From: Clostridiales bacterium
Lineage (GTDB): Bacteria > Bacillota > Clostridia > Peptostreptococcales > Acidaminobacteraceae
Direction of reading: 5' to 3'
Assembly (NCBI GenBank): GCA_016342415.1
Contig: JAEIOD010000010.1
Location: 87,351 to 151,350, forward strand
Length of the DNA: 64,000 nt
Below, piece after piece: positions 14,122 through 28,507 of this stretch (its first letter is position 1; each line of letters starts with the position of its first letter). Under the pieces are notes generated by a model, which searched no databases, was not told the DNA's origin, and was given only the letters and a program-made list of their open reading frames with translations. The position numbers were made by a program, and so were the translations under genes.

Positions 14122-14180
14122 TATTAGAACTGAGAGTATTTATTGTTGTAGCATATCCATTAACTACATTTAGGTACAAA

Positions 14181-14204
14181 AAAACACTTCAAAAGAAGTG
14201 TTTT
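14181..14204 (-). terminator. Rho-independent terminator of 14226..15371
   Basis: AAAACACTTC / GAAGTGTTTT stem with a 4-nt loop. On the minus strand it is followed by T7. Confidence 0.7.
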
Positions 14205-14225
14205 CATTTAACCAAACCTACAAAT

Positions 14226-16532: not shown

Positions 16533-18941
16533 TTATAATGATAAATCTTTCCTAGAAACAATCCCTTTTCCGCCATATAGTACCACAACATCTCCGTCTT
16601 TCAGAATATCAGTTGCCCCAGCAACACCCCCAATGGCAGGTAGTCCATATTCTCTTGCTACTATTGCACCATGAGAGATTGGTCCTCCACTTTCCATAAT
16701 CAGTCCTTTTACTTTCAAGAACAAAGGTGTCCAAGACGGATCTGTATTGTGAGTAACAATAATATCTTCTTCGTTTAGGGTCACCCCAACTGGTGAACTG
16801 AGTATACGTACAACCCCAGTGACTTGGCCACTTGATAAAGGCATCCCAACAAGATCGTTTTCTCCAATCTTATCCGGTTCTGGTTGCTCGTAGGTTTCTC
16901 CATTGCTCAAGATAAATCTTGGAATCTTATTGTAACGGTTTTGTTGTTTATATGTTTCTTTTCTCATAGTCACTTCGTCAAGAAGATCAGTAGTATCATT
17001 TAAAGCCATCTCATCAACATACACATAAGCAATATCCTCTCTATTTTGAAGGCGTCCCTCTTCTACCATTTCATCCCCAATCTGAAGAAATATCTGCCTT
17101 AACAAATCAAGGGCTCTTACAGCTGTAAATTTAGGTAATTCTCTTACTCCTGCCAACAGTCTATAATTACGAAGATCACTTGTTATTTTCTTTGCTTTTT
17201 TTGCTGAAAAATCTTTTGTGACTCTCTCTTCAATATGTTTTATACAAAGTTCAGCATCTTCTTGTTGCTCTTTAAAACGCTCTACCATTTGATTGCATTT
17301 ATTGTCTTTCATATAACTTTGGATAAGATCAATAATATAATCCGGTTTTTCGTGCCAACGACTCCACCCCATATCGATATCGAGTTCTGATCTATGACCA
17401 TAAGCTTTAAGAAAACCCAGCAAAGCTTCATCGTCATAAGATGGGATTTTTTGTTCTTTGTTATACTCGCAAGCTAACTTGGCAAGGGCTATTCCCATCA
17501 TGGTTGTTGGATTATTTGGTAAGGCTAACCTCACTGGATTGATTGACAGCTCTTCTTCGTAATGCTTGTTCAACCATTTCTCATGGACTTCTATTTTCTT
17601 AAGTCCATATGCAGCATACATCACAATCTTAAATGCCAAAGTCAGCATCTCCTCATTTACTACTTCAAATAATGCCAAACGATCTTCTCGTGTTGTCGTT
17701 TTCTCTATTCTGTTTTTAAGTTCACTGATATATACATCACCCAAACTTGTTGCTTCTTCAAGACCTTTTGTAGGATTTTTTGCACTGATTTTCCCATACT
17801 TGTTCAGAGACAGTCCCCACCGAACAATACCCATGGACAACTTGAATTTACCACCTTGAGCCCTGAATGTCTTACCGTACTGTCCATATATGCTTTTTAA
17901 TAGGCGTCCACCTGCAGGATCTTTGCTATCAAGACTGCCATGCAACTTTCGTCCAATTATTTTTCTACCGATAACTTCTGTCAAATCATAATAGATCCGT
18001 CCATTGATCATTTTAATAAATCCCGGATACTGAATCTTTTTCTTGCCACTATAATAAATACTTGTATAACCTGAGAAAGTGGAACGCCAAAATTCATAAC
18101 CAAGAGGTGTAAACGGCGCTCTCATACCTTGTATTACAGTGTTGTAACACATATAAAGACTTAGTTTATCCGTGTTCAGTAAAGCCTCATCTATTGGGTA
18201 CAAGGTCGTTATATCTCTTGATTGAAGAATATAAAGGATATCTTTTGAATAAGTCCATTCAATATCCTGAGCGACTCCAAACAGTATTTCCAATTTCTTA
18301 CCCAGTGTTTTAAGTTCCTCGGACTGATCTTCTGTAAGACAGTCTGATACGTGTAAATCATCAATAAACGATAAAGGTACTCGTCCATCCACGACCGCAT
18401 CGCCATAACCTTTTGCACCATTGATCACTATATCATTTCTATTACCTGTAATCGGATTAGCAGTAAACATGACACCCGAGATTTCCGATGCTACCATCGA
18501 TTGAATGATAAGTGCAATACCTTTAATGACTTCGAGATTTTGTTCTTTTACATATGCCATAACATGTTCACTATTACTGGATAACAAACATTTTTTTATG
18601 GCTTCCAGCATCTGTTCAAAACTCTTAACATGTAATACCGTATCGTATAAACCTGCAAAACTTGTATCACCAAGATCCTCCATCAAAGCAGATGAACGTA
18701 CAGCCAACTCCTCATTATCAAACTTGTCATATATATGACGAAGGTTCTCAATCTCTGATGGCGTGAAAGTAAGCTCTCCCTCTTCACATCTCTCCATTAC
18801 TTTTACAGACCAGTCTGATGAAATAACGAGCCCCTTTGGTACATTGATGTTCTCATGAAGCATAAGACCGAGATTGACGGATTTGGTTCCATAGGTCGAT
18901 TTGTCATCTGATATAAGTTCATTGAGTAATTTATATTCCAT
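16533..18941 (-). CDS. PEP-utilizing enzyme family phosphotransferase (PEP synthase / rifampin-phosphotransferase-like architecture), paralog 1
   Basis: 802 aa. N-terminal PPDK_N-type ATP-grasp domain and C-terminal swivel His domain (GGPISHGAIVAREYGLPAIGG). SD AGGAGGTG. Divergent TetR gene immediately upstream. Confidence 0.75.
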   Translation of the reverse strand: MEYKLLNELISDDKSTYGTKSVNLGLMLHENINVPKGLVISSDWSVKVMERCEEGELTFTPSEIENLRHIYDKFDNEELAVRSSALMEDLGDTSFAGLYDTVLHVKSFEQMLEAIKKCLLSSNSEHVMAYVKEQNLEVIKGIALIIQSMVASEISGVMFTANPITGNRNDIVINGAKGYGDAVVDGRVPLSFIDDLHVSDCLTEDQSEELKTLGKKLEILFGVAQDIEWTYSKDILYILQSRDITTLYPIDEALLNTDKLSLYMCYNTVIQGMRAPFTPLGYEFWRSTFSGYTSIYYSGKKKIQYPGFIKMINGRIYYDLTEVIGRKIIGRKLHGSLDSKDPAGGRLLKSIYGQYGKTFRAQGGKFKLSMGIVRWGLSLNKYGKISAKNPTKGLEEATSLGDVYISELKNRIEKTTTREDRLALFEVVNEEMLTLAFKIVMYAAYGLKKIEVHEKWLNKHYEEELSINPVRLALPNNPTTMMGIALAKLACEYNKEQKIPSYDDEALLGFLKAYGHRSELDIDMGWSRWHEKPDYIIDLIQSYMKDNKCNQMVERFKEQQEDAELCIKHIEERVTKDFSAKKAKKITSDLRNYRLLAGVRELPKFTAVRALDLLRQIFLQIGDEMVEEGRLQNREDIAYVYVDEMALNDTTDLLDEVTMRKETYKQQNRYNKIPRFILSNGETYEQPEPDKIGENDLVGMPLSSGQVTGVVRILSSPVGVTLNEEDIIVTHNTDPSWTPLFLKVKGLIMESGGPISHGAIVAREYGLPAIGGVAGATDILKDGDVVVLYGGKGIVSRKDLSL

Positions 18942-21615: not shown

Positions 21616-23010
21616 CTAATTTTCATCCTTCATTTCATACATCTTTTCATCTGCTTCTTTGATTAGTTCACTAAACGAATTCCCTATACATCTGTCACAA
21701 ACAATTCCTACACTGATTGAAACAAAAAGATCATGTTCTGGAATTTTAAACTCTGAATTGTATGTATCCAACAATCGAGCTTTTAATTTTTCCAACTCCT
21801 TTTGGTCATTTGCTTTTGGGATTACAATCAAAAATTCATCTCCACCAATTCTAAAGACAGATTCATTGCTCCTTGAGCATTTATCAATAATACGCGCTAC
21901 TTCTATAAGTACTAAATCACCAACATGATGGCCATAAGTATCATTGACACTTTTAAATTTATCAATATCAATAATCATCATTCCAACCATGCTAGCTTCA
22001 CGATCAGCAGTTGAGCAAACAACATCCTCATAAGTCTCTAAAAACTGACGATTCAAAAGACCTGTCAAAGAATCATGATTAGACCTATACTTGATATTCA
22101 AATACTTCAAAAAGAAATATACAAGCAAAGTAATCATAATTGCAGAAAGAAAACTGATAATCACACCGATACTCCATTGTTTTAGCGAACTAATCCAACC
22201 ACCTTCTTTTATTACCAATACATCCCAAATAATGGGTTCATCGATAAAACTAAAACTAACTGGATTTTGATCCCTAATCTTAGTATCACCATATATGATA
22301 TTTCCATCATCATCTTTTTCAAATATCATTACTTCTATATTTGCATCATCAGCCTTCGAGGATATGACTCCATAAATCTCATCAGCTTTCAGAACAATAC
22401 TTACTTGTCCCCAATACAAACCATTTGAACTTAACAAGGGTTGCCTTATTATAAATCCTTGTCCACCTTGAACCAGATTAATAGGACCTTGAAATCCCGA
22501 TTTTAACTCCGTCTTGGTTCTAAGCACAACTTCCCTTTATGTCTCAATCTGAGCTAAATCGATACCAAGAGATTCCTCATTCCCTTCAAGTGGATAATTA
22601 CACACTATTGATGTATCTTCAATTATCGCTATATTTCTGATGTACTTCATATTGTCTCTAGTTAAACTTCCGAGATATTCCAAAGTATCCATTTGATTGC
22701 TAAAGCCGTTAATCATCAAATATGCCTGATATCCTTCCAACAATGTCATTTGATTCTGTATCAAAGAATGTATATCGTTCTGAAATCGGAAATATCGTTC
22801 TGTGGTCTCATAACGTTCTTGTCTTTGAATATCTCTAATAACAATTGATGTAACCAACATGAAAATCAAAAAAATTATAAAACCAATAAATCCAGAATAT
22901 AAAAGCGCTTTTTTTCTACGAAACTTCTTAAATGAATACTTCATTAAATCCCCCCTATACTTATTATAGCCAGAGAGATACAACTCAACCAAATAAAAAT
23001 CATGCAACAC
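21616..23010 (-). pseudogene. sensor diguanylate cyclase (TM-dCache-TM-GGDEF) interrupted by a single in-frame TAA
   Basis: Track ORFs 22537..23010 and 21616..22527 are in the same frame, separated only by TAA (...GIDLAQIET * REV VLRTKTELK...). The downstream part carries a second TM and a GGDEF domain (RIGGDEF). Confidence 0.7.
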
Positions 23011-23087
23011 TAAATTTTAAACTTATGTACTTAAATTATTCTAATCTTCACATTTTCAGTTTTATTAGCATTAGTTTATTGAGCAAA

Positions 23088-24176
23088 TTATTCTACTTTT
23101 ACGCCATCTTTATAGTACTCTTCAACGATTATTCGACCGCCTGAAGAGTAAATGATGTATTTACCATCTAGTTTACCGTCTTTATAATTATCTTCCCTTA
23201 GTATTTGACCATTTTCATAGTAACCGATGGATTGACCATCTTCTAAACCAGCTTTATAGGCCCATTCATACTTTATTTGACCGCTTTCGTAATAAGTGAT
23301 GTACTTACCATCTTCTATTCCATCTTTATAGTTCTCTACCATTTCTATTTGACCATTTTCATAATAGCCGATGGATTTACCATCCAATTCACTAGCTTTA
23401 TAGTTCTCTTCCCTTTTTATATGACCGTTTTCATAATAGACAATGGATTTACCGTTCAATTCGCTTGCTTTATAGTTCTCTTCCCTCTTTATTTTACCGT
23501 TTTTATAATAGATGATGGATTTACCATCCAATTCTCCAACGATATAGTTCCTTTCCACTTCTATTTCACCGTTTTCATAATAGATGATATCCTTACCCTG
23601 CAATCGACCAGCTATATAGTTCTTTTCCCTCTCTATTTGACCATTTTCATAATAACTCATCACTGTCCCATCAAATGGTTTTAATTGATTAATTTCATAA
23701 AACAGCCCATCATCTCTTTGTTGTAATTTAGTGGAATCTATTATTTTAGATGTTTCCATTAGTTCTGATGTTTCTATGTTTTCTACTTTGCTATATTCTA
23801 GAACATTTCCATTTTCATCTATTAGTTTTAGAATATTATTTTTTACCAAATACTCAAAAATTAAATTATCATTACCACTTAAAGCAGTTGCTGTAATTTC
23901 ACCACCAAAATGCGAAAATAAATATAGCACTTTATCATTATTGGATTCATCAATGATTGTTGCATAATTTTTGTATATAATTAAATATTGTTCATTTCCA
24001 TACCATATACCAGTTGTTTCATAGTTATTCTTACTGAACTCAATATCTACAAATATCTCTTTAATATATTTTTCAGCATTGAGTTGACTTTCATCAACTT
24101 CTTCTTTATCAGAACTACAACTTGCCAAACCTATTAAAAATATCATTCCTATCATTACTATTATGATTTTTTTCAT
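23088..24176 (-). CDS. lipoprotein with 8 tandem MORN-variant (YwqK-like, MORN_2) repeats
   Basis: Signal/lipobox MKKIIIVMIGMIFLIGLASCSS. Repeats of YYENGQI(K/E)RE.NYK.G.L.GKSI with 69-nt periodicity at DNA level (23100-23650). Confidence 0.75.
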   Translation of the reverse strand: MKKIIIVMIGMIFLIGLASCSSDKEEVDESQLNAEKYIKEIFVDIEFSKNNYETTGIWYGNEQYLIIYKNYATIIDESNNDKVLYLFSHFGGEITATALSGNDNLIFEYLVKNNILKLIDENGNVLEYSKVENIETSELMETSKIIDSTKLQQRDDGLFYEINQLKPFDGTVMSYYENGQIEREKNYIAGRLQGKDIIYYENGEIEVERNYIVGELDGKSIIYYKNGKIKREENYKASELNGKSIVYYENGHIKREENYKASELDGKSIGYYENGQIEMVENYKDGIEDGKYITYYESGQIKYEWAYKAGLEDGQSIGYYENGQILREDNYKDGKLDGKYIIYSSGGRIIVEEYYKDGVKVE

Positions 24177-24289
24177 CTAATATCCCCTTAATGTTGGTAT
24201 ATTATATATCCATTAAAACAATAACCCAATCATATACCAATATTATAAGGTTATATCAAATAAATATCATTAAATAGTAAAGAAAACTA

Positions 24290-24470
24290 CTAATGTAGAT
24301 TAATCATCATCTCTGGTCTGGTAAGTCAGAGGAGTCGCCTCCTCGTCCTCCCATAAGAATCCGCGTGACACTTTCACGTCACTAGGCTCCAGTCACTTTC
24401 AACTAATGCCTCTCAGGCATTAGCAAGTCGTCGATTCCGGTAATACTCTTGGTGTTCTGGAAGTATGGAT
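24290..24470 (-). ncRNA. GC-rich hairpin-dense intergenic element, candidate structured RNA (class unassigned; group II intron domain V/VI-like motif on minus strand)
   Basis: About 50% GC against a ~30% background. Stable hairpins GAGGAG-TCGC-CTCCTC (24329-24344), GTGAC..GTCAC (24365-24381), AATGCC-TCTCA-GGCATT (24405-24421). On the minus strand 24390..24357 reads GGAGCCTAGTGACGTGAAAGTGTCACGCGGATTC, resembling domain V (GAGCC-stem-GAAA-stem-GGTTC) of group II introns. Confidence 0.3.
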
Positions 24471-24816
24471 TCGTATACAGTCTAATTAAAGTGACTAGAA
24501 AATCATATTCTAATCACAAATCTCTCAAACATGTCTCCACCTGTGAATGCTGCAACATGCTCAACTATATTGTTTTCCTTAGATTTAGTTTCACAACCAT
24601 TTCCATATGTTTGGATACACCCAAACTACACCCTAAATTTCATTATCTAATGGGGCTATTAAAACTTCTATCTTTCTGCCATTGTTTCTGCAATTGTAAC
24701 ATTTACATTCAATAATTACGTAACTTCACCAATTGGCTTCTCACATCAGTGTTACGAGATTTTGACTGGCATTATATTCAGCTTAATTGGTTAAGGGTTT
24801 TAAAAACAGGTTTAAT

Positions 24817-25150
24817 TCAACTCAATTTTTCCACTCTATTTCGACCATTTTCCTTCGCTTGATATAAAGCATCATCAACATCTTTAATCAATTGTTTCAA
24901 TGTATAATTTTTATTGTAGGTCGCAACACCAAAGCTCGCTGTTTTATGTCCAACATGTTCAAAGTGATAATTGTTTATGATGTCTTTTAATTCTTCTGCT
25001 TTCATGTATGTATCATCAATATTGGTTTCAGGCATAAGAATTATAAATTCCTCACCACCCCATCTACCGACAATATTCCGTTTGTAGAAATTGTCCCTTA
25101 GTATGTGATAAATTCAACTAACACATCTCCGCTTGATGACCATACGTAAT
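24817..25150 (-). pseudogene. C-terminal remnant of a GGDEF-domain gene
   Basis: Reads ...LRDNFYKRNIVGRWGGEEFIILMPETNIDDTYMKAEEL...YQAKENGRNRVEKLS* with an in-frame stop just upstream. No N-terminal part. Track shows only 24817..25035. Confidence 0.6.
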
Positions 25151-25198
25151 ATTAACATCCTTAATATAATTGATATCTACCTGTTTTATAAATCTTTG

Positions 25199-27763
25199 TT
25201 AAATTTCTTCAAGCAATCTGACAGTACCTCTATTTCCATCTACTTCAATGAGATCTCCATCTTTAATTAAATCCATAATCCCGACTAATCCACTAACGCA
25301 CGGTATCCCATACTCTCTTGCAATAATACTACCATGTTGTAATGGTCCACCTATTTCCATAACAACACCAGAAGCATTAGTAAAGATTGGTGTCCAAGAA
25401 GGTTCCGTTGCTCGTACAATCAGTATTTCACCTGGTATAATTGATTTTTCATATGGCGTGTGAAGTACTTTTGCCTTTCCGACTACTTTACCTGGCGCTA
25501 TTGAGTCACCAATAATATCACCGTTTTCAATCTTAATTTTTGCTTTATGGATTTTCCCACGGCTGTCAATTACAAGAGGCCATTGTGTTACTGATTCAAC
25601 AGTCTTATAACCTCTTAGATTCTTTTCTCTTGTAAACATCAAGTCGAATTTTTCATCTTTCTGAGCTTTTGTGATTTCCTCTATTGTTAAGTCAAATATA
25701 TGACAGGCCTCTTCAAGTCTGCCTTCTGTCACCCATTTTCCAGCAATCTCAAGACAGATTTTATGGAGAATTGAAAATGCATTAACAAGCATATATTTAG
25801 GATACTCTCTGTAACCAAAAGTTGCTTTTAATCTTTCAGCAGCTTTAATGAACTTCTTATCCTGACCTTTGTCTTTAGCGACTTGCAGAAGTTTATTATA
25901 TGCCTCTTCTCTCTTGGATTTAACAATTAGATTTTGATTCTCAGATGGATTGATTTGTATTAATCGGTCATATAGCATACCGACATCTTCATATATTCTT
26001 TTAGTAGCAACATCAATCTCTTTAAAACCACGCGACGAGTATAGTCTCATAAACTTACCATAATGAGTCATAAAACCGACAGGAAAATTATCTGTTTTAA
26101 TTTTTAATATAAAATGAGCTCTGGATTTTATTTCCCTAAACTCAGAAGAACATGCCATTAAAAATAGAAGATTGCCCATTTCACTTGTAGGATTTCCATC
26201 TAGATCCATATTCAAAGCAATGAGTTCAGTATCCAGATCATCATTCTTAAAGATTTTTTTTAACTTCTGCTGTGACAACATACCCGCAAATATCGGTGAT
26301 ACATTATCCATCAAAGTATCAAAAGCTGTCATGGTTTCATTTACCAATTCATCTATAGTTTTTTTACAGTCAAGATTCTCTATGACAGCAGTAAAGATAT
26401 CCACGCTTTTCAAATAATCTTTGACGATCCTTTCTTGATCTGAATAAACAGCTTTAAAAAGATCTGGTAGCATCAAGAGTGCTTTTTTTAGAGATCTTCC
26501 AATATACCCTTTTGTGCCCTCTGGTTTGCCTTCAAAAGAATGTGATTCAAGATCAATGTTCTCAAATATCTTCTTAATGTTCCCATCATAAGTATCCAAG
26601 GCTTTTCTACCTGTTTTTTTCCCAAGCACTTTCTGATATGCAGTGACACTCAAGTATTCTCGACCATTAACGACTGGAGCGGTTCCATTTATCTGGGTAC
26701 TGAGTAAACCACTCTTAGTTGAATAGATGAGTTTTTTCCATATATCCATACCCATAATGCTCATAGATTCGTCAATACCTTGAGTCATCATCAATAGATC
26801 AATATAAAATCTTTTTGTTTCTCCTGGTTCAGTCAGAAGTTCTTCGAAAAAAGGTAGGTGAGTTGTGATTGGTCTTGCTTGAAGAAGATACAGTTGATCT
26901 GCTTCATATGCCCATTCAACATCAACAGGAAAATTATAATGTTGCTCACACCTTTTGATCAATGAAGATAGTTCTATTATTTGTATCTCCAATAGAGCTG
27001 GTTGCTCTTTATTTATATTTTCTTTTTCCACCATGCCACCATTAGGATTTAACTGAAGTTCAATCTCTTTAATGTTGACTTTTTTCTCAATTATTTTCTT
27101 GTCAACTATGTCATAGATGTACATATCCGGTGTTACAATCCCCGATACAATTGCTTCTCCTAATCCGAAACTGGCATTGATAACGACTTCATCATAAGCA
27201 TTATTCAGTGGATTTAATGAAAAACCAACACCACTGACCTCAGACGCAATTTGTCTTTGAATAATGACTGCAATCGAAGTGTTTTCTAACGGAATGTCCT
27301 TTTGCTTTTTATAAGACATTACCCTGTAGTCGAAACAGGAAGAAAATGCCAAAGCAACAGTTTCTTCTAAATCTTCTATCTTCTTGCCTAAATACGTTTC
27401 ATACATACCTGCAAACGATACACCTTTTAAATCCTCTTCTGGAGATGATGAACGTACTGCAAAAAACTTGTCTTCTAAAATCATGATTTGATTGTCGAAC
27501 ATTTCTTTTTGTTGTTTATCAAATTTCAGAATCATTGCCAACGACTTTACTTTATCGCAATTTTCCTTAGTTGTATCTTTTAGTGTATTTAAAAATTGTT
27601 CAGATTCTTTGATTTCTGACAACCAAGACTCAAAAAAATCGACACTTAGAACAATGCCTTCCGGTACAGGAAAACCAGCCTTTTTTGTTTCGATTAGTAC
27701 TTTTGCCTTTCCACCGACTTGCAATATAGAAGGCACCTTTTTTACATCAAAACTATGAATCAT
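25199..27763 (-). CDS. PEP-utilizing enzyme family phosphotransferase (rifampin-phosphotransferase/PEP-synthase-like), paralog 2
   Basis: Track ORF 25199..27802. Likely start is the internal MIHSFDVKK at 27763, which has a strong SD AAGGAGG and overlaps the TetR stop by 11 nt. C-terminal swivel domain GGPLQHGSIIAREYGIPCVSG. Confidence 0.75.
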   Translation of the reverse strand: MIHSFDVKKVPSILQVGGKAKVLIETKKAGFPVPEGIVLSVDFFESWLSEIKESEQFLNTLKDTTKENCDKVKSLAMILKFDKQQKEMFDNQIMILEDKFFAVRSSSPEEDLKGVSFAGMYETYLGKKIEDLEETVALAFSSCFDYRVMSYKKQKDIPLENTSIAVIIQRQIASEVSGVGFSLNPLNNAYDEVVINASFGLGEAIVSGIVTPDMYIYDIVDKKIIEKKVNIKEIELQLNPNGGMVEKENINKEQPALLEIQIIELSSLIKRCEQHYNFPVDVEWAYEADQLYLLQARPITTHLPFFEELLTEPGETKRFYIDLLMMTQGIDESMSIMGMDIWKKLIYSTKSGLLSTQINGTAPVVNGREYLSVTAYQKVLGKKTGRKALDTYDGNIKKIFENIDLESHSFEGKPEGTKGYIGRSLKKALLMLPDLFKAVYSDQERIVKDYLKSVDIFTAVIENLDCKKTIDELVNETMTAFDTLMDNVSPIFAGMLSQQKLKKIFKNDDLDTELIALNMDLDGNPTSEMGNLLFLMACSSEFREIKSRAHFILKIKTDNFPVGFMTHYGKFMRLYSSRGFKEIDVATKRIYEDVGMLYDRLIQINPSENQNLIVKSKREEAYNKLLQVAKDKGQDKKFIKAAERLKATFGYREYPKYMLVNAFSILHKICLEIAGKWVTEGRLEEACHIFDLTIEEITKAQKDEKFDLMFTREKNLRGYKTVESVTQWPLVIDSRGKIHKAKIKIENGDIIGDSIAPGKVVGKAKVLHTPYEKSIIPGEILIVRATEPSWTPIFTNASGVVMEIGGPLQHGSIIAREYGIPCVSGLVGIMDLIKDGDLIEVDGNRGTVRLLEEI

Positions 27764-28373
27764 CAGAGCCTCCTTTATAAAAGTTGTTTTTAAGTATTTC
27801 ATAGTAACTATTACATTCTTCTTTTAGATTTAAAATATCTGTTTCACTTACAGTTACTTCAGGTTTTTCCAATAAATTTTTATATAAACCTCTGAAGGTC
27901 CACTTAATAATATGCAGCATTTTTTTTATCTCTAATTCATCTTTAAACAATGAATAATCAACGTTATGACTAAAAAACCTTTCTCTCCAATCACGGAGTT
28001 CTGTCGGATTTGCATATTTAAAAATATGGTCTTTGTATTTTTCACCGAACTCAATCATATAAGGATATTCAGCTATAACATCCAATCTGTATTTTGTGAG
28101 TTCACAAACTCTTTTAATGATATCGCTATTGTCCCAATCGATATAGTCGTTCACTTCACTAACACCCTTTTGCAAGGAGTAAAAATTAAGGTAATCAAAC
28201 AAGGTTTCCTTGTCCTTAAAATAATGGTAAAGAATACCTCTAGAGATTTTGGCTTTTTGAACAATCAAATTCGTTGATGCTTTTTTATACTCATTTTTGG
28301 AAAATACTTCAAATGATGTTTTTATGATATTTTTCACCATTTCATTACTTGTATCAATATGATCAAAGTCCAT
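27753..28373 (-). CDS. TetR/AcrR-family transcriptional regulator, co-transcribed with paralog 2
   Basis: HTH STNLIVQKAKISRGILYHYFKDKETLF. Likely start MDFDHIDTS (28373) with SD AAGGGAG. Track ORF extends further upstream. Confidence 0.75.
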   Translation of the reverse strand: MDFDHIDTSNEMVKNIIKTSFEVFSKNEYKKASTNLIVQKAKISRGILYHYFKDKETLFDYLNFYSLQKGVSEVNDYIDWDNSDIIKRVCELTKYRLDVIAEYPYMIEFGEKYKDHIFKYANPTELRDWRERFFSHNVDYSLFKDELEIKKMLHIIKWTFRGLYKNLLEKPEVTVSETDILNLKEECNSYYEILKNNFYKGGSDDS

Positions 28374-28403
28374 TTCTTCACTCCCTTTACTCAATATAAG
28401 TAT

Positions 28404-28457
28404 CATCGACAACTTCTGTCTATAATAATCATACATCCATCGACAGAAGTTGTCAAT
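28404..28457 (-). promoter_or_regulatory. candidate TetR operator pair plus promoter: inverted 13-bp repeats GACAACTTCTGTC / GACAGAAGTTGTC flanking a TATAAT-like element
   Basis: Seen in sequence at 28408-28420 and 28442-28454. Each half-site has palindromic GACA/TGTC ends. Lies 30-80 nt upstream of the tetR start. Confidence 0.5.
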
Positions 28458-28507
28458 GTGGATTTTTGTTAAGAATAGCAATCAAAAAGCACTTCATAGT
28501 GAAATGC

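Follow-up and report, generated by a model that had tools for sequence, protein, structure and literature searches.

A GC-rich hairpin island upstream of a MORN lipoprotein gene in an uncultured Clostridiales genome is probably an inactive 3′-terminal fragment of a group II intron

Introduction

Why does a short, GC-rich and hairpin-dense island lie between two protein-coding loci of an AT-rich Clostridiales genome: is it a regulatory RNA of its neighbours, or something that a mobile element has left behind? A sequence-only reading of this DNA favoured a remnant of group II intron domains V and VI (DV and DVI) on the minus strand and gave, as an alternative, a c-di-GMP-linked cis-regulatory RNA of the adjacent MORN gene. 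Here both are weighed by computational analysis, along with other readings that the locus invites. "The window" denotes the whole stretch of DNA that was analysed, 64 kb long, and positions are those of the window unless another locus is named.

Composition and folding of the island

The GC peak of the window is a 120-nt stretch inside 24289-24470, with 0.52 GC vs a mean of 0.329 and a 99.9th percentile of 0.483; in 100-nt windows, GC over 24300-24449 is up to 0.48-0.50. Repeat search and folding both return the stem-loops described earlier, namely DV, GAGGAG-GCGA-CTCCTC at 24344-24329 and CTAATGCCT/AGGCATTAG at 24403-24423, so that 24290-24470 is indeed a GC-rich, hairpin-dense island holding the GC maximum of the window. 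Compared with shuffled sequences, its folding stability gave z = −1.4 on the minus strand and −1.7 on the plus strand, and z = −2.9 when the segment was extended to 24290-24500. Since predicted stability is only modestly above that of shuffled controls, hairpin density is not significant by itself. It is in matching the group II DV/DVI model, rather than in thermodynamic stability, that the island stands above chance.

The DV-like 33-nt segment, GAGCCTAGTGACGTGAAAGTGTCACGCGGATTC (24357-24389, minus strand), has no second copy within the 64-kb window with up to 3 mismatches allowed, and the intron-like element is likewise single-copy there.

Domains V and VI on the minus strand

Three features define the element:

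24316-24391, minus strand: match to RF00029 (group II intron DV+DVI) by Infernal, model positions 1-77 of 77, 34.0 bits
24357-24389, minus strand: domain V, 33 nt, with AGC triad, GAAA tetraloop and 5-bp upper stem intact and lower stem damaged
24319-24353, minus strand: domain VI, intact, by sequence reading, Infernal alignment and repeat search

An Infernal search of both strands against Rfam, the check that accompanied the sequence-only reading, thus aligns RF00029 over its full length on the minus strand (24391-24316), where DV/DVI had been proposed. The match has an E-value of 1.2e-4 when 1.2 kb is searched and of 0.0064 when the entire window is scanned against all 4227 Rfam families, among which it is the top match anywhere in the window. 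The curated gathering score of RF00029 is 40 bits. Because the element falls below it at 34.0 bits, an Rfam scan of the window at default thresholds returns zero matches, and RF00029 is seen only with E-value thresholds. A weak CRISPR-DR53-like Rfam match lies at 14177-14213, with no repeat array at that site.

A second line of evidence comes from an nhmmer profile built from 73 intron 3′ tails, whose sole significant site in the window is 24397-24320 (E=3.2e-7). The DV portion of this profile is partly circular, because the loci were picked with a pattern derived from the element's own DV; the DVI part was absent from that pattern. A DVI-only profile has its best match in the window at 24356-24320, which is not significant by sequence alone (E=3.8).

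The GAGGAG-GCGA-CTCCTC hairpin, assigned earlier to the place of domain VI, proves to be the distal stem of that domain (GAGGAG-GCGA-CUCCUC, 24344-24329). It follows an internal loop and is enclosed by a basal stem, UGGGAG/CUU(A)CCA, from which A24322 bulges 6 nt ahead of the 3′ end. Group II introns typically have their bulged branch-point A in DVI, 7-8 nt ahead of the 3′ splice site, and A24322 corresponds to it; the former intron would have ended at 24316 (...CCAGAC).

Related introns in other genomes

A degenerate DV pattern, based on the element's own DV, was scanned over species-representative genomes and returned at least 119 loci of this DV type, a broad intron family with members in Vibrio, Shewanella, Photobacterium, cyanobacteria, Methanobrevibacter and a Bacilli MAG. 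Among the matches listed there is neither the source MAG nor a near-identical copy. The relatives share the layout GAGCCNAGUG-4-GAAA-4-CACGCUNGGUUC, then UUAGGRG...(DVI)...CUAYCCGAC, and, where checked, have GUGCGAC 5′ ends about 2.1-2.6 kb upstream. In an Rfam scan of eight of these loci, each gave at least one RF00029 match (50.6-62.2 bits). Intron architecture (GUGCGAC, intron protein, CUAYCCGAC end) was read directly in a few loci and deduced by pattern or ORF criteria in about 50; where checked, the related loci are genuine introns.

Beyond species representatives, a tighter DV+DVI pattern found one unrelated remnant in metagenomes (L122), and DV pattern scans of viral sequences gave one distant match in one scan and none in another. 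A blastn search of the 541-nt region against plasmids and phages returned nothing relevant.

Some relatives merit description in their own right. A Methanobrevibacter MAG (L017, 4104-4949 of that locus) carries two DV/DVI matches 770 nt apart. There, beyond the 3′ end of a first intron, come the C-terminal portion of another intron protein and then a second DV/DVI: one intron sits within another, in a nested, twintron-like insertion. In L003, L006, L007, L014 and other Vibrio, Photobacterium and Shewanella loci, the 3′ exons show GTTAG/GTTAC-like motifs a few nt after the intron end; their resemblance to integron attC core sites suggests IIC-attC introns, a class mentioned in PMC4424553. Many copies of the multi-copy Vibrio, Photobacterium and Shewanella introns sit at contig ends, as expected for repeats.

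Lesions in domain V

The DV hairpin of the element has its 5′ AGC triad, an unpaired dinucleotide in the 3′ strand and a GNRA tetraloop (GAGCC...GAAA...CACG at 24389-24357); the triad and the loop, here GAAA, had been recognised from the letters, as had an imperfect lower stem. Comparison with the relatives specifies that imperfection. DV is 34 nt long in 117 of the 119 relatives listed and 33 nt in the element, whose 3′ strand reads CACGC-GGAUUC vs CACGCUGGGUUC in the relatives. One base is absent opposite A7, leaving A7 without a partner. In addition, a G-to-A change makes C4, the C of the triad, face an A, at a position that is G in all 119 relatives listed. In place of a fully paired 9-bp lower helix that includes the partner of the triad C, the element has at best 7 of 9 pairs, vs 9 of 9 in 115 of the 117 relatives with a 34-nt DV.

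The sole 33-nt DVs among the 119 relatives listed are those of L061 (a Vibrio MAG) and L070 (Shewanella benthica KT99). Each has a single base absent from the 3′ strand, and the two are probably decayed copies as well.

With two lesions in the catalytic lower stem of DV, the fragment would be unable to splice or move. The RF00029 match, the layout shared with relatives and the DV lesions together uphold the earlier main reading of a DV/DVI intron remnant on the minus strand, and we regard it as very probable that the element is an inactive 3′-terminal fragment of a group II intron retroelement.

Absence of the upstream intron domains

If the element is such a fragment, which parts of the intron are left? 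A group II intron begins with GUGYG and carries domains I-III upstream of domain IV. By sequence reading, the GUGYG motif is absent from 24392-24830, at E<=10 the Rfam group-II-D1D4 families match no part of the window, and an nhmmer profile of 34 intron 5′ regions found nothing in it. The Rfam D1D4 negative is weak alone, because 7 of the 8 Rfam-scanned relatives also have no D1D4 match at the gathering threshold.

The reverse transcriptase/maturase ORF that a mobile group II intron carries in domain IV is missing as well, in agreement with the earlier claim that there is no RT ORF. No RT/maturase remnant was found in 24392-24830 by blastx, a family HMM or Pfam (three minus-strand frames, stop-masked). 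A tblastn search with 210 ORFs (380 aa or longer) of the related loci, among them intron proteins, located no intron protein in the 64-kb window. No minus-strand ORF of at least 50 aa exists in 24392-24816.

Upstream of DV, the following features were recorded:

24403-24423, minus strand: perfect 9-bp hairpin CUAAUGCCU-GAG-AGGCAUUAG, by repeat search and folds, immediately 5′ of DV
24388-24399 with 24488-24499, minus strand: 12-nt inverted repeat, 92% complementary, by repeat search and fold
24413-24481, minus strand: putative C-terminal trace of an intron-encoded protein (IEP), TVYESILPEHQEYYRNRRLANA plus a stop at 24415-24413, about 22 codons
24482-24816, minus strand: spacer of 335 nt, 33% GC, between the GGDEF stop codon and the fragment

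The spacer shows no ORF, intron 5′ motif or protein-family signal. Class IIC introns insert downstream of an intrinsic terminator or attC stem-loop, with short IBS1/IBS3 recognition. In the present case the fragment lies downstream of the GGDEF stop (24817) with its 5′ junction lost, and scanning from 24816 to the fragment revealed no hairpin of terminator type.

A possible trace of the intron protein

A small hairpin directly ahead of DV is also found in relatives, and the one at 24403-24423 is probably the 3′ part of the former domain IV. A candidate remnant stop codon overlaps its loop and the adjoining stem base. This stop lies 23 nt ahead of DV; the stops of the relatives' intron proteins lie 13-55 nt ahead. 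The codons before it, TVYESILPEHQEYYRNRRLANA, resemble the TPYD(P/S)QHQEYLAKRK tail of En-less intron proteins, and position and frame fit.

The remnant search upstream of DV combined blastx, a family HMM, Pfam on stop-masked frames, and tblastn with a reversed control. Its sole match at the expected position was PEHQEYYRNRR/TVYES. IWKW, TKSK and ERFVIRI were dropped as protein-remnant matches, not being colinear with family spacing. By score the trace is not significant (19.6 bits vs 19.2 for the reversed-sequence control), and a mini-profile ranks its site 4th in the window; the resemblance of some 22 C-terminal codons is all that speaks for a domain IV protein. Judged by resemblance, TVYESILPEHQEYYRNRRLANA is thus suggestive of a remnant of the intron protein C-terminus.

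A compact intron as an unlikely alternative

As folded, the 12-nt inverted repeat could hold together a roughly 100-nt unit that resembles domain IV. Because its 3′ arm takes in the first DV bases, closure of the repeat and folding of DV compete. Such a repeat is unexpected for a randomly truncated fragment, which makes an ORF-less derivative possible instead of simple 5′ truncation.

Taken further, this would make the element a group II intron that is complete though compact and ORF-less, about 450-500 nt long (24316 to ~24800) and still spliced with the help of an intron protein encoded elsewhere. ORF-less bacterial introns are known, e.g. C.te.I1 in a Clostridium (PMC4424553, PMC3919590), and a UAUGG...CUAAG pair resembling a GAAA-tetraloop receptor stands about 200 nt upstream of the GAAA-capped DV. 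We nevertheless hold such an intron to be very unlikely. The 5′ motif, D1D4 and 5′-region searches described above all came out empty, the predicted stability of the entire 541-nt region does not exceed that of shuffled sequences (z=-1.6), D1-D3 would have to fit into about 320 nt at most vs about 550 nt in relatives, and the lower stem of DV is damaged. The receptor-like motif itself (24570-24606, minus strand), UAUGG...(GGUU-GUGA-AACU hairpin)...UCUAAGG, resembles the 11-nt GAAA-tetraloop receptor with its strands in reversed order relative to the relatives: domain I of five Vibrio-type introns has CUAAG...UAUGG. We therefore discarded it as a tetraloop receptor; with the strand order wrong for the family, the likeness is probably due to chance.

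Genomic neighbourhood

The intron fragment lies on the minus strand between a decayed GGDEF gene fragment and a MORN lipoprotein gene, in the orientation of both. Further upstream is a complete Rph/PEP-synthase-like gene of 867 aa (25199-27802, minus strand; P0001, JEZ08_11850). The GGDEF remnant (24817-25198, minus strand) follows in frame right after its stop codon, without an N-terminal/sensor part and with two frameshifts (~25128 and ~25100). Its ORF comprises the last 87 codons only (Pfam GGDEF positions 74-161, E=2.3e-17), and the remnant could be a pseudogene or an error of the MAG assembly. On the other side, DVI is followed by 139 nt at about 20% GC and then by the MORN_2 lipoprotein gene (Pfam E=2.6e-32), with its start codon at 24176 and its own signal peptide. 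Past 24316, each of the three frames meets a stop within 8 codons, and a TAG stands in frame directly ahead of the MORN ATG. Between the fragment and the MORN start there is one further feature:

24242-24270, minus strand: promoter-like site ATGATA-17-TATAAT, 10/12, by consensus scan only

Conservation of this arrangement was followed through the PEP-synthase homologues, whose best non-self match has 69% identity. Only the TetR-PEP synthase pair is kept among them, downstream genes differ, and no homologous intergenic region was found. Exact-product look-ups for the MORN protein and the PEP synthase (P0001) found no record. The TetR gene of the pair (27753-28481) precedes the 25199-27802 gene, and the pairing is kept in distant relatives. 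The latter gene also has a paralogue in the window: 16533-18941 and 25199-27802, both on the minus strand and 6 kb apart, are two PPDK_N plus PEP-utilizers (rifampin-phosphotransferase-like) genes. The MORN_2 gene carries seven tandem 72-nt (24-aa) repeats of 71-75% identity at 23149-23655.

With its neighbours in place, a role in cis can be considered. The remnant, or an unrelated DV/DVI-like RNA, might have been co-opted as a leader or attenuator of the MORN gene or as a 3′ stabiliser or terminator of the upstream transcript, as the common orientation and the GC-rich helices kept in a 33% GC genome would allow. The evidence renders this very unlikely: at E<=10 Rfam gives no riboswitch or leader family, a scan of DV, DVI and the 3′ flank revealed no site resembling a terminator (G+C-rich stem plus T run), the promoter-like site of the MORN gene comes only after the element, and the upstream gene is a frameshifted, putative pseudogene fragment. 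The c-di-GMP-linked regulatory RNA put forward earlier fares no better. The Rfam models of the c-di-GMP-I and c-di-GMP-II riboswitches have no match at E<=10 on either strand, and the sole promoter-like site (24270-24242) is downstream.

Could DV and DVI, inert on their own, act together with distant domains I-IV? Alternative splicing in C. tetani draws on extra DV/DVI copies that lie upstream of surface-protein ORFs and have no D1-D4 of their own (PMC3919590). The present element, which precedes a lipoprotein ORF of a Clostridiales genome and has DVI and its branch A intact, might by analogy be an orphan alternative 3′ splice module (C.te.I1-like) or the 3′ half of a trans-splicing intron. 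A C.te.I1-type module consists of several near-identical DV/DVI, one D1-D4 and ORFs open through the splice site; here there is one DV in 64 kb, D1-D4 is not detected on either side, and DV bears two lesions. Moreover, the stops after 24316, the TAG before the MORN ATG, and the MORN gene's own signal peptide and promoter-like site leave no exon fusion possible. An orphan module is accordingly hardly credible. Equally hard to credit is DV/DVI as the live 3′ half of a fragmented intron, trans-splicing or distantly cis-acting, with D1-D4 outside the 64-kb window; the C.A mismatch and bulged A of DV would then be tolerated variants, not lesions.

Order alone recalls a last possibility, a circularly permuted (CP) group II ribozyme. 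In such a ribozyme D1-D4 stand behind D5-D6, separated from them by a short linker that is released as an RNA circle. D5-D6 without upstream D1-D4 is the order found at the 5′ end of CP group II RNAs (PMC8637638). D1-D4 should then lie directly 3′ of D6, where the element has the 139-nt AT-rich stretch and the MORN_2 lipoprotein gene; neither D1-D4 nor a GGGCG-type 5′ splice-site region was found in 22400-24420 at E<=5. The CP arrangement is effectively refuted, and its probability is negligible.

A probable decayed 3′-terminal intron fragment

We return to the reading as an inactive 3′-terminal fragment. The surviving parts would be domain V, domain VI and probably the end of domain IV, in which a trace of the intron protein's C-terminus would be kept. 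Domains I-III, with the exon-binding sites and scaffold, and the reverse transcriptase/maturase would have been lost, whether because cDNA synthesis stopped short at insertion (5′ truncation) or because they were deleted later. The high GC of the element is explained by G+C-rich helices of the ribozyme core that have not yet drifted to the AT-rich composition of the host. Functional domains I and V are required for catalysis (PMC4496777), and bacterial group II intron copies are mostly truncated or inactivated (PMC4424553).

Identification as an intron remnant accounts for the GC-rich island, which need not be mistaken for a riboswitch or sRNA. It also illustrates that remnants with a damaged DV can drop just under the Rfam gathering score and be missed by default annotation. 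With a frameshifted GGDEF fragment adjoining the intron remnant, this stretch appears to be a zone of gene decay. The lineage would host, or once have hosted, an En-less group II intron with relatives in Vibrio, Shewanella and Methanobrevibacter. Decayed group II intron fragments are common, ordinary genomic debris in bacteria, and the element would be one more of them, in an uncultured Clostridiales MAG.

Comparison with known systems

CP group II ribozymes (PMC8637638) and the element have in common D5-D6 without preceding D1-D4; in the element a protein-coding gene follows, not D1-D4. The C.te.I1 locus of Clostridium tetani, an ORF-less intron with extra downstream DV/DVI (PMC3919590, PMC4024640), comes closer in that its host is clostridial too and that its modules likewise place DV/DVI, with no adjacent D1-D4, upstream of a cell-surface protein gene. 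The element differs from it in being single-copy, with no upstream D1-D4, no frame across the 3′ splice site and a damaged DV.

The nearest intact counterparts are the En-less bacterial and archaeal introns of Vibrio, Shewanella, Photobacterium, Methanobrevibacter and the Bacilli MAG (among them L003, L004, L017 and L060). Relative to these, the element scores 34 vs 51-62 bits, has one deletion and a C.A mismatch in the lower stem of DV, and is without D1-D3, the GUGCGAC 5′ end and the IEP ORF; its intron class (e.g. IIC) is not assignable from DV/DVI alone. Both have a DV of the type GAGCCNAGUG-4-GAAA-4-CACGC..GGUUC with J5/6 UUA, a bulged A in DVI 6-7 nt ahead of a ...CC(C/A)GAC 3′ end, and a small hairpin and stop codon some tens of nt ahead of DV; a P(Y/F)D..QEY...R protein tail is possibly common to both.

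In its state of preservation, the element belongs beside the truncated and inactivated bacterial group II introns (PMC4424553; RmInt1 decay, PMC4496777). It departs from those cases in that no intact parent copy is visible in the 64 kb; the studies cited in PMC4496777 stress loss of the 3′ terminus, whereas in the element the 3′ terminus survives. Like them, it is partial, non-autonomous and located outside housekeeping genes, adjoins other decayed DNA (the frameshifted GGDEF fragment) and carries point lesions in the ribozyme core.
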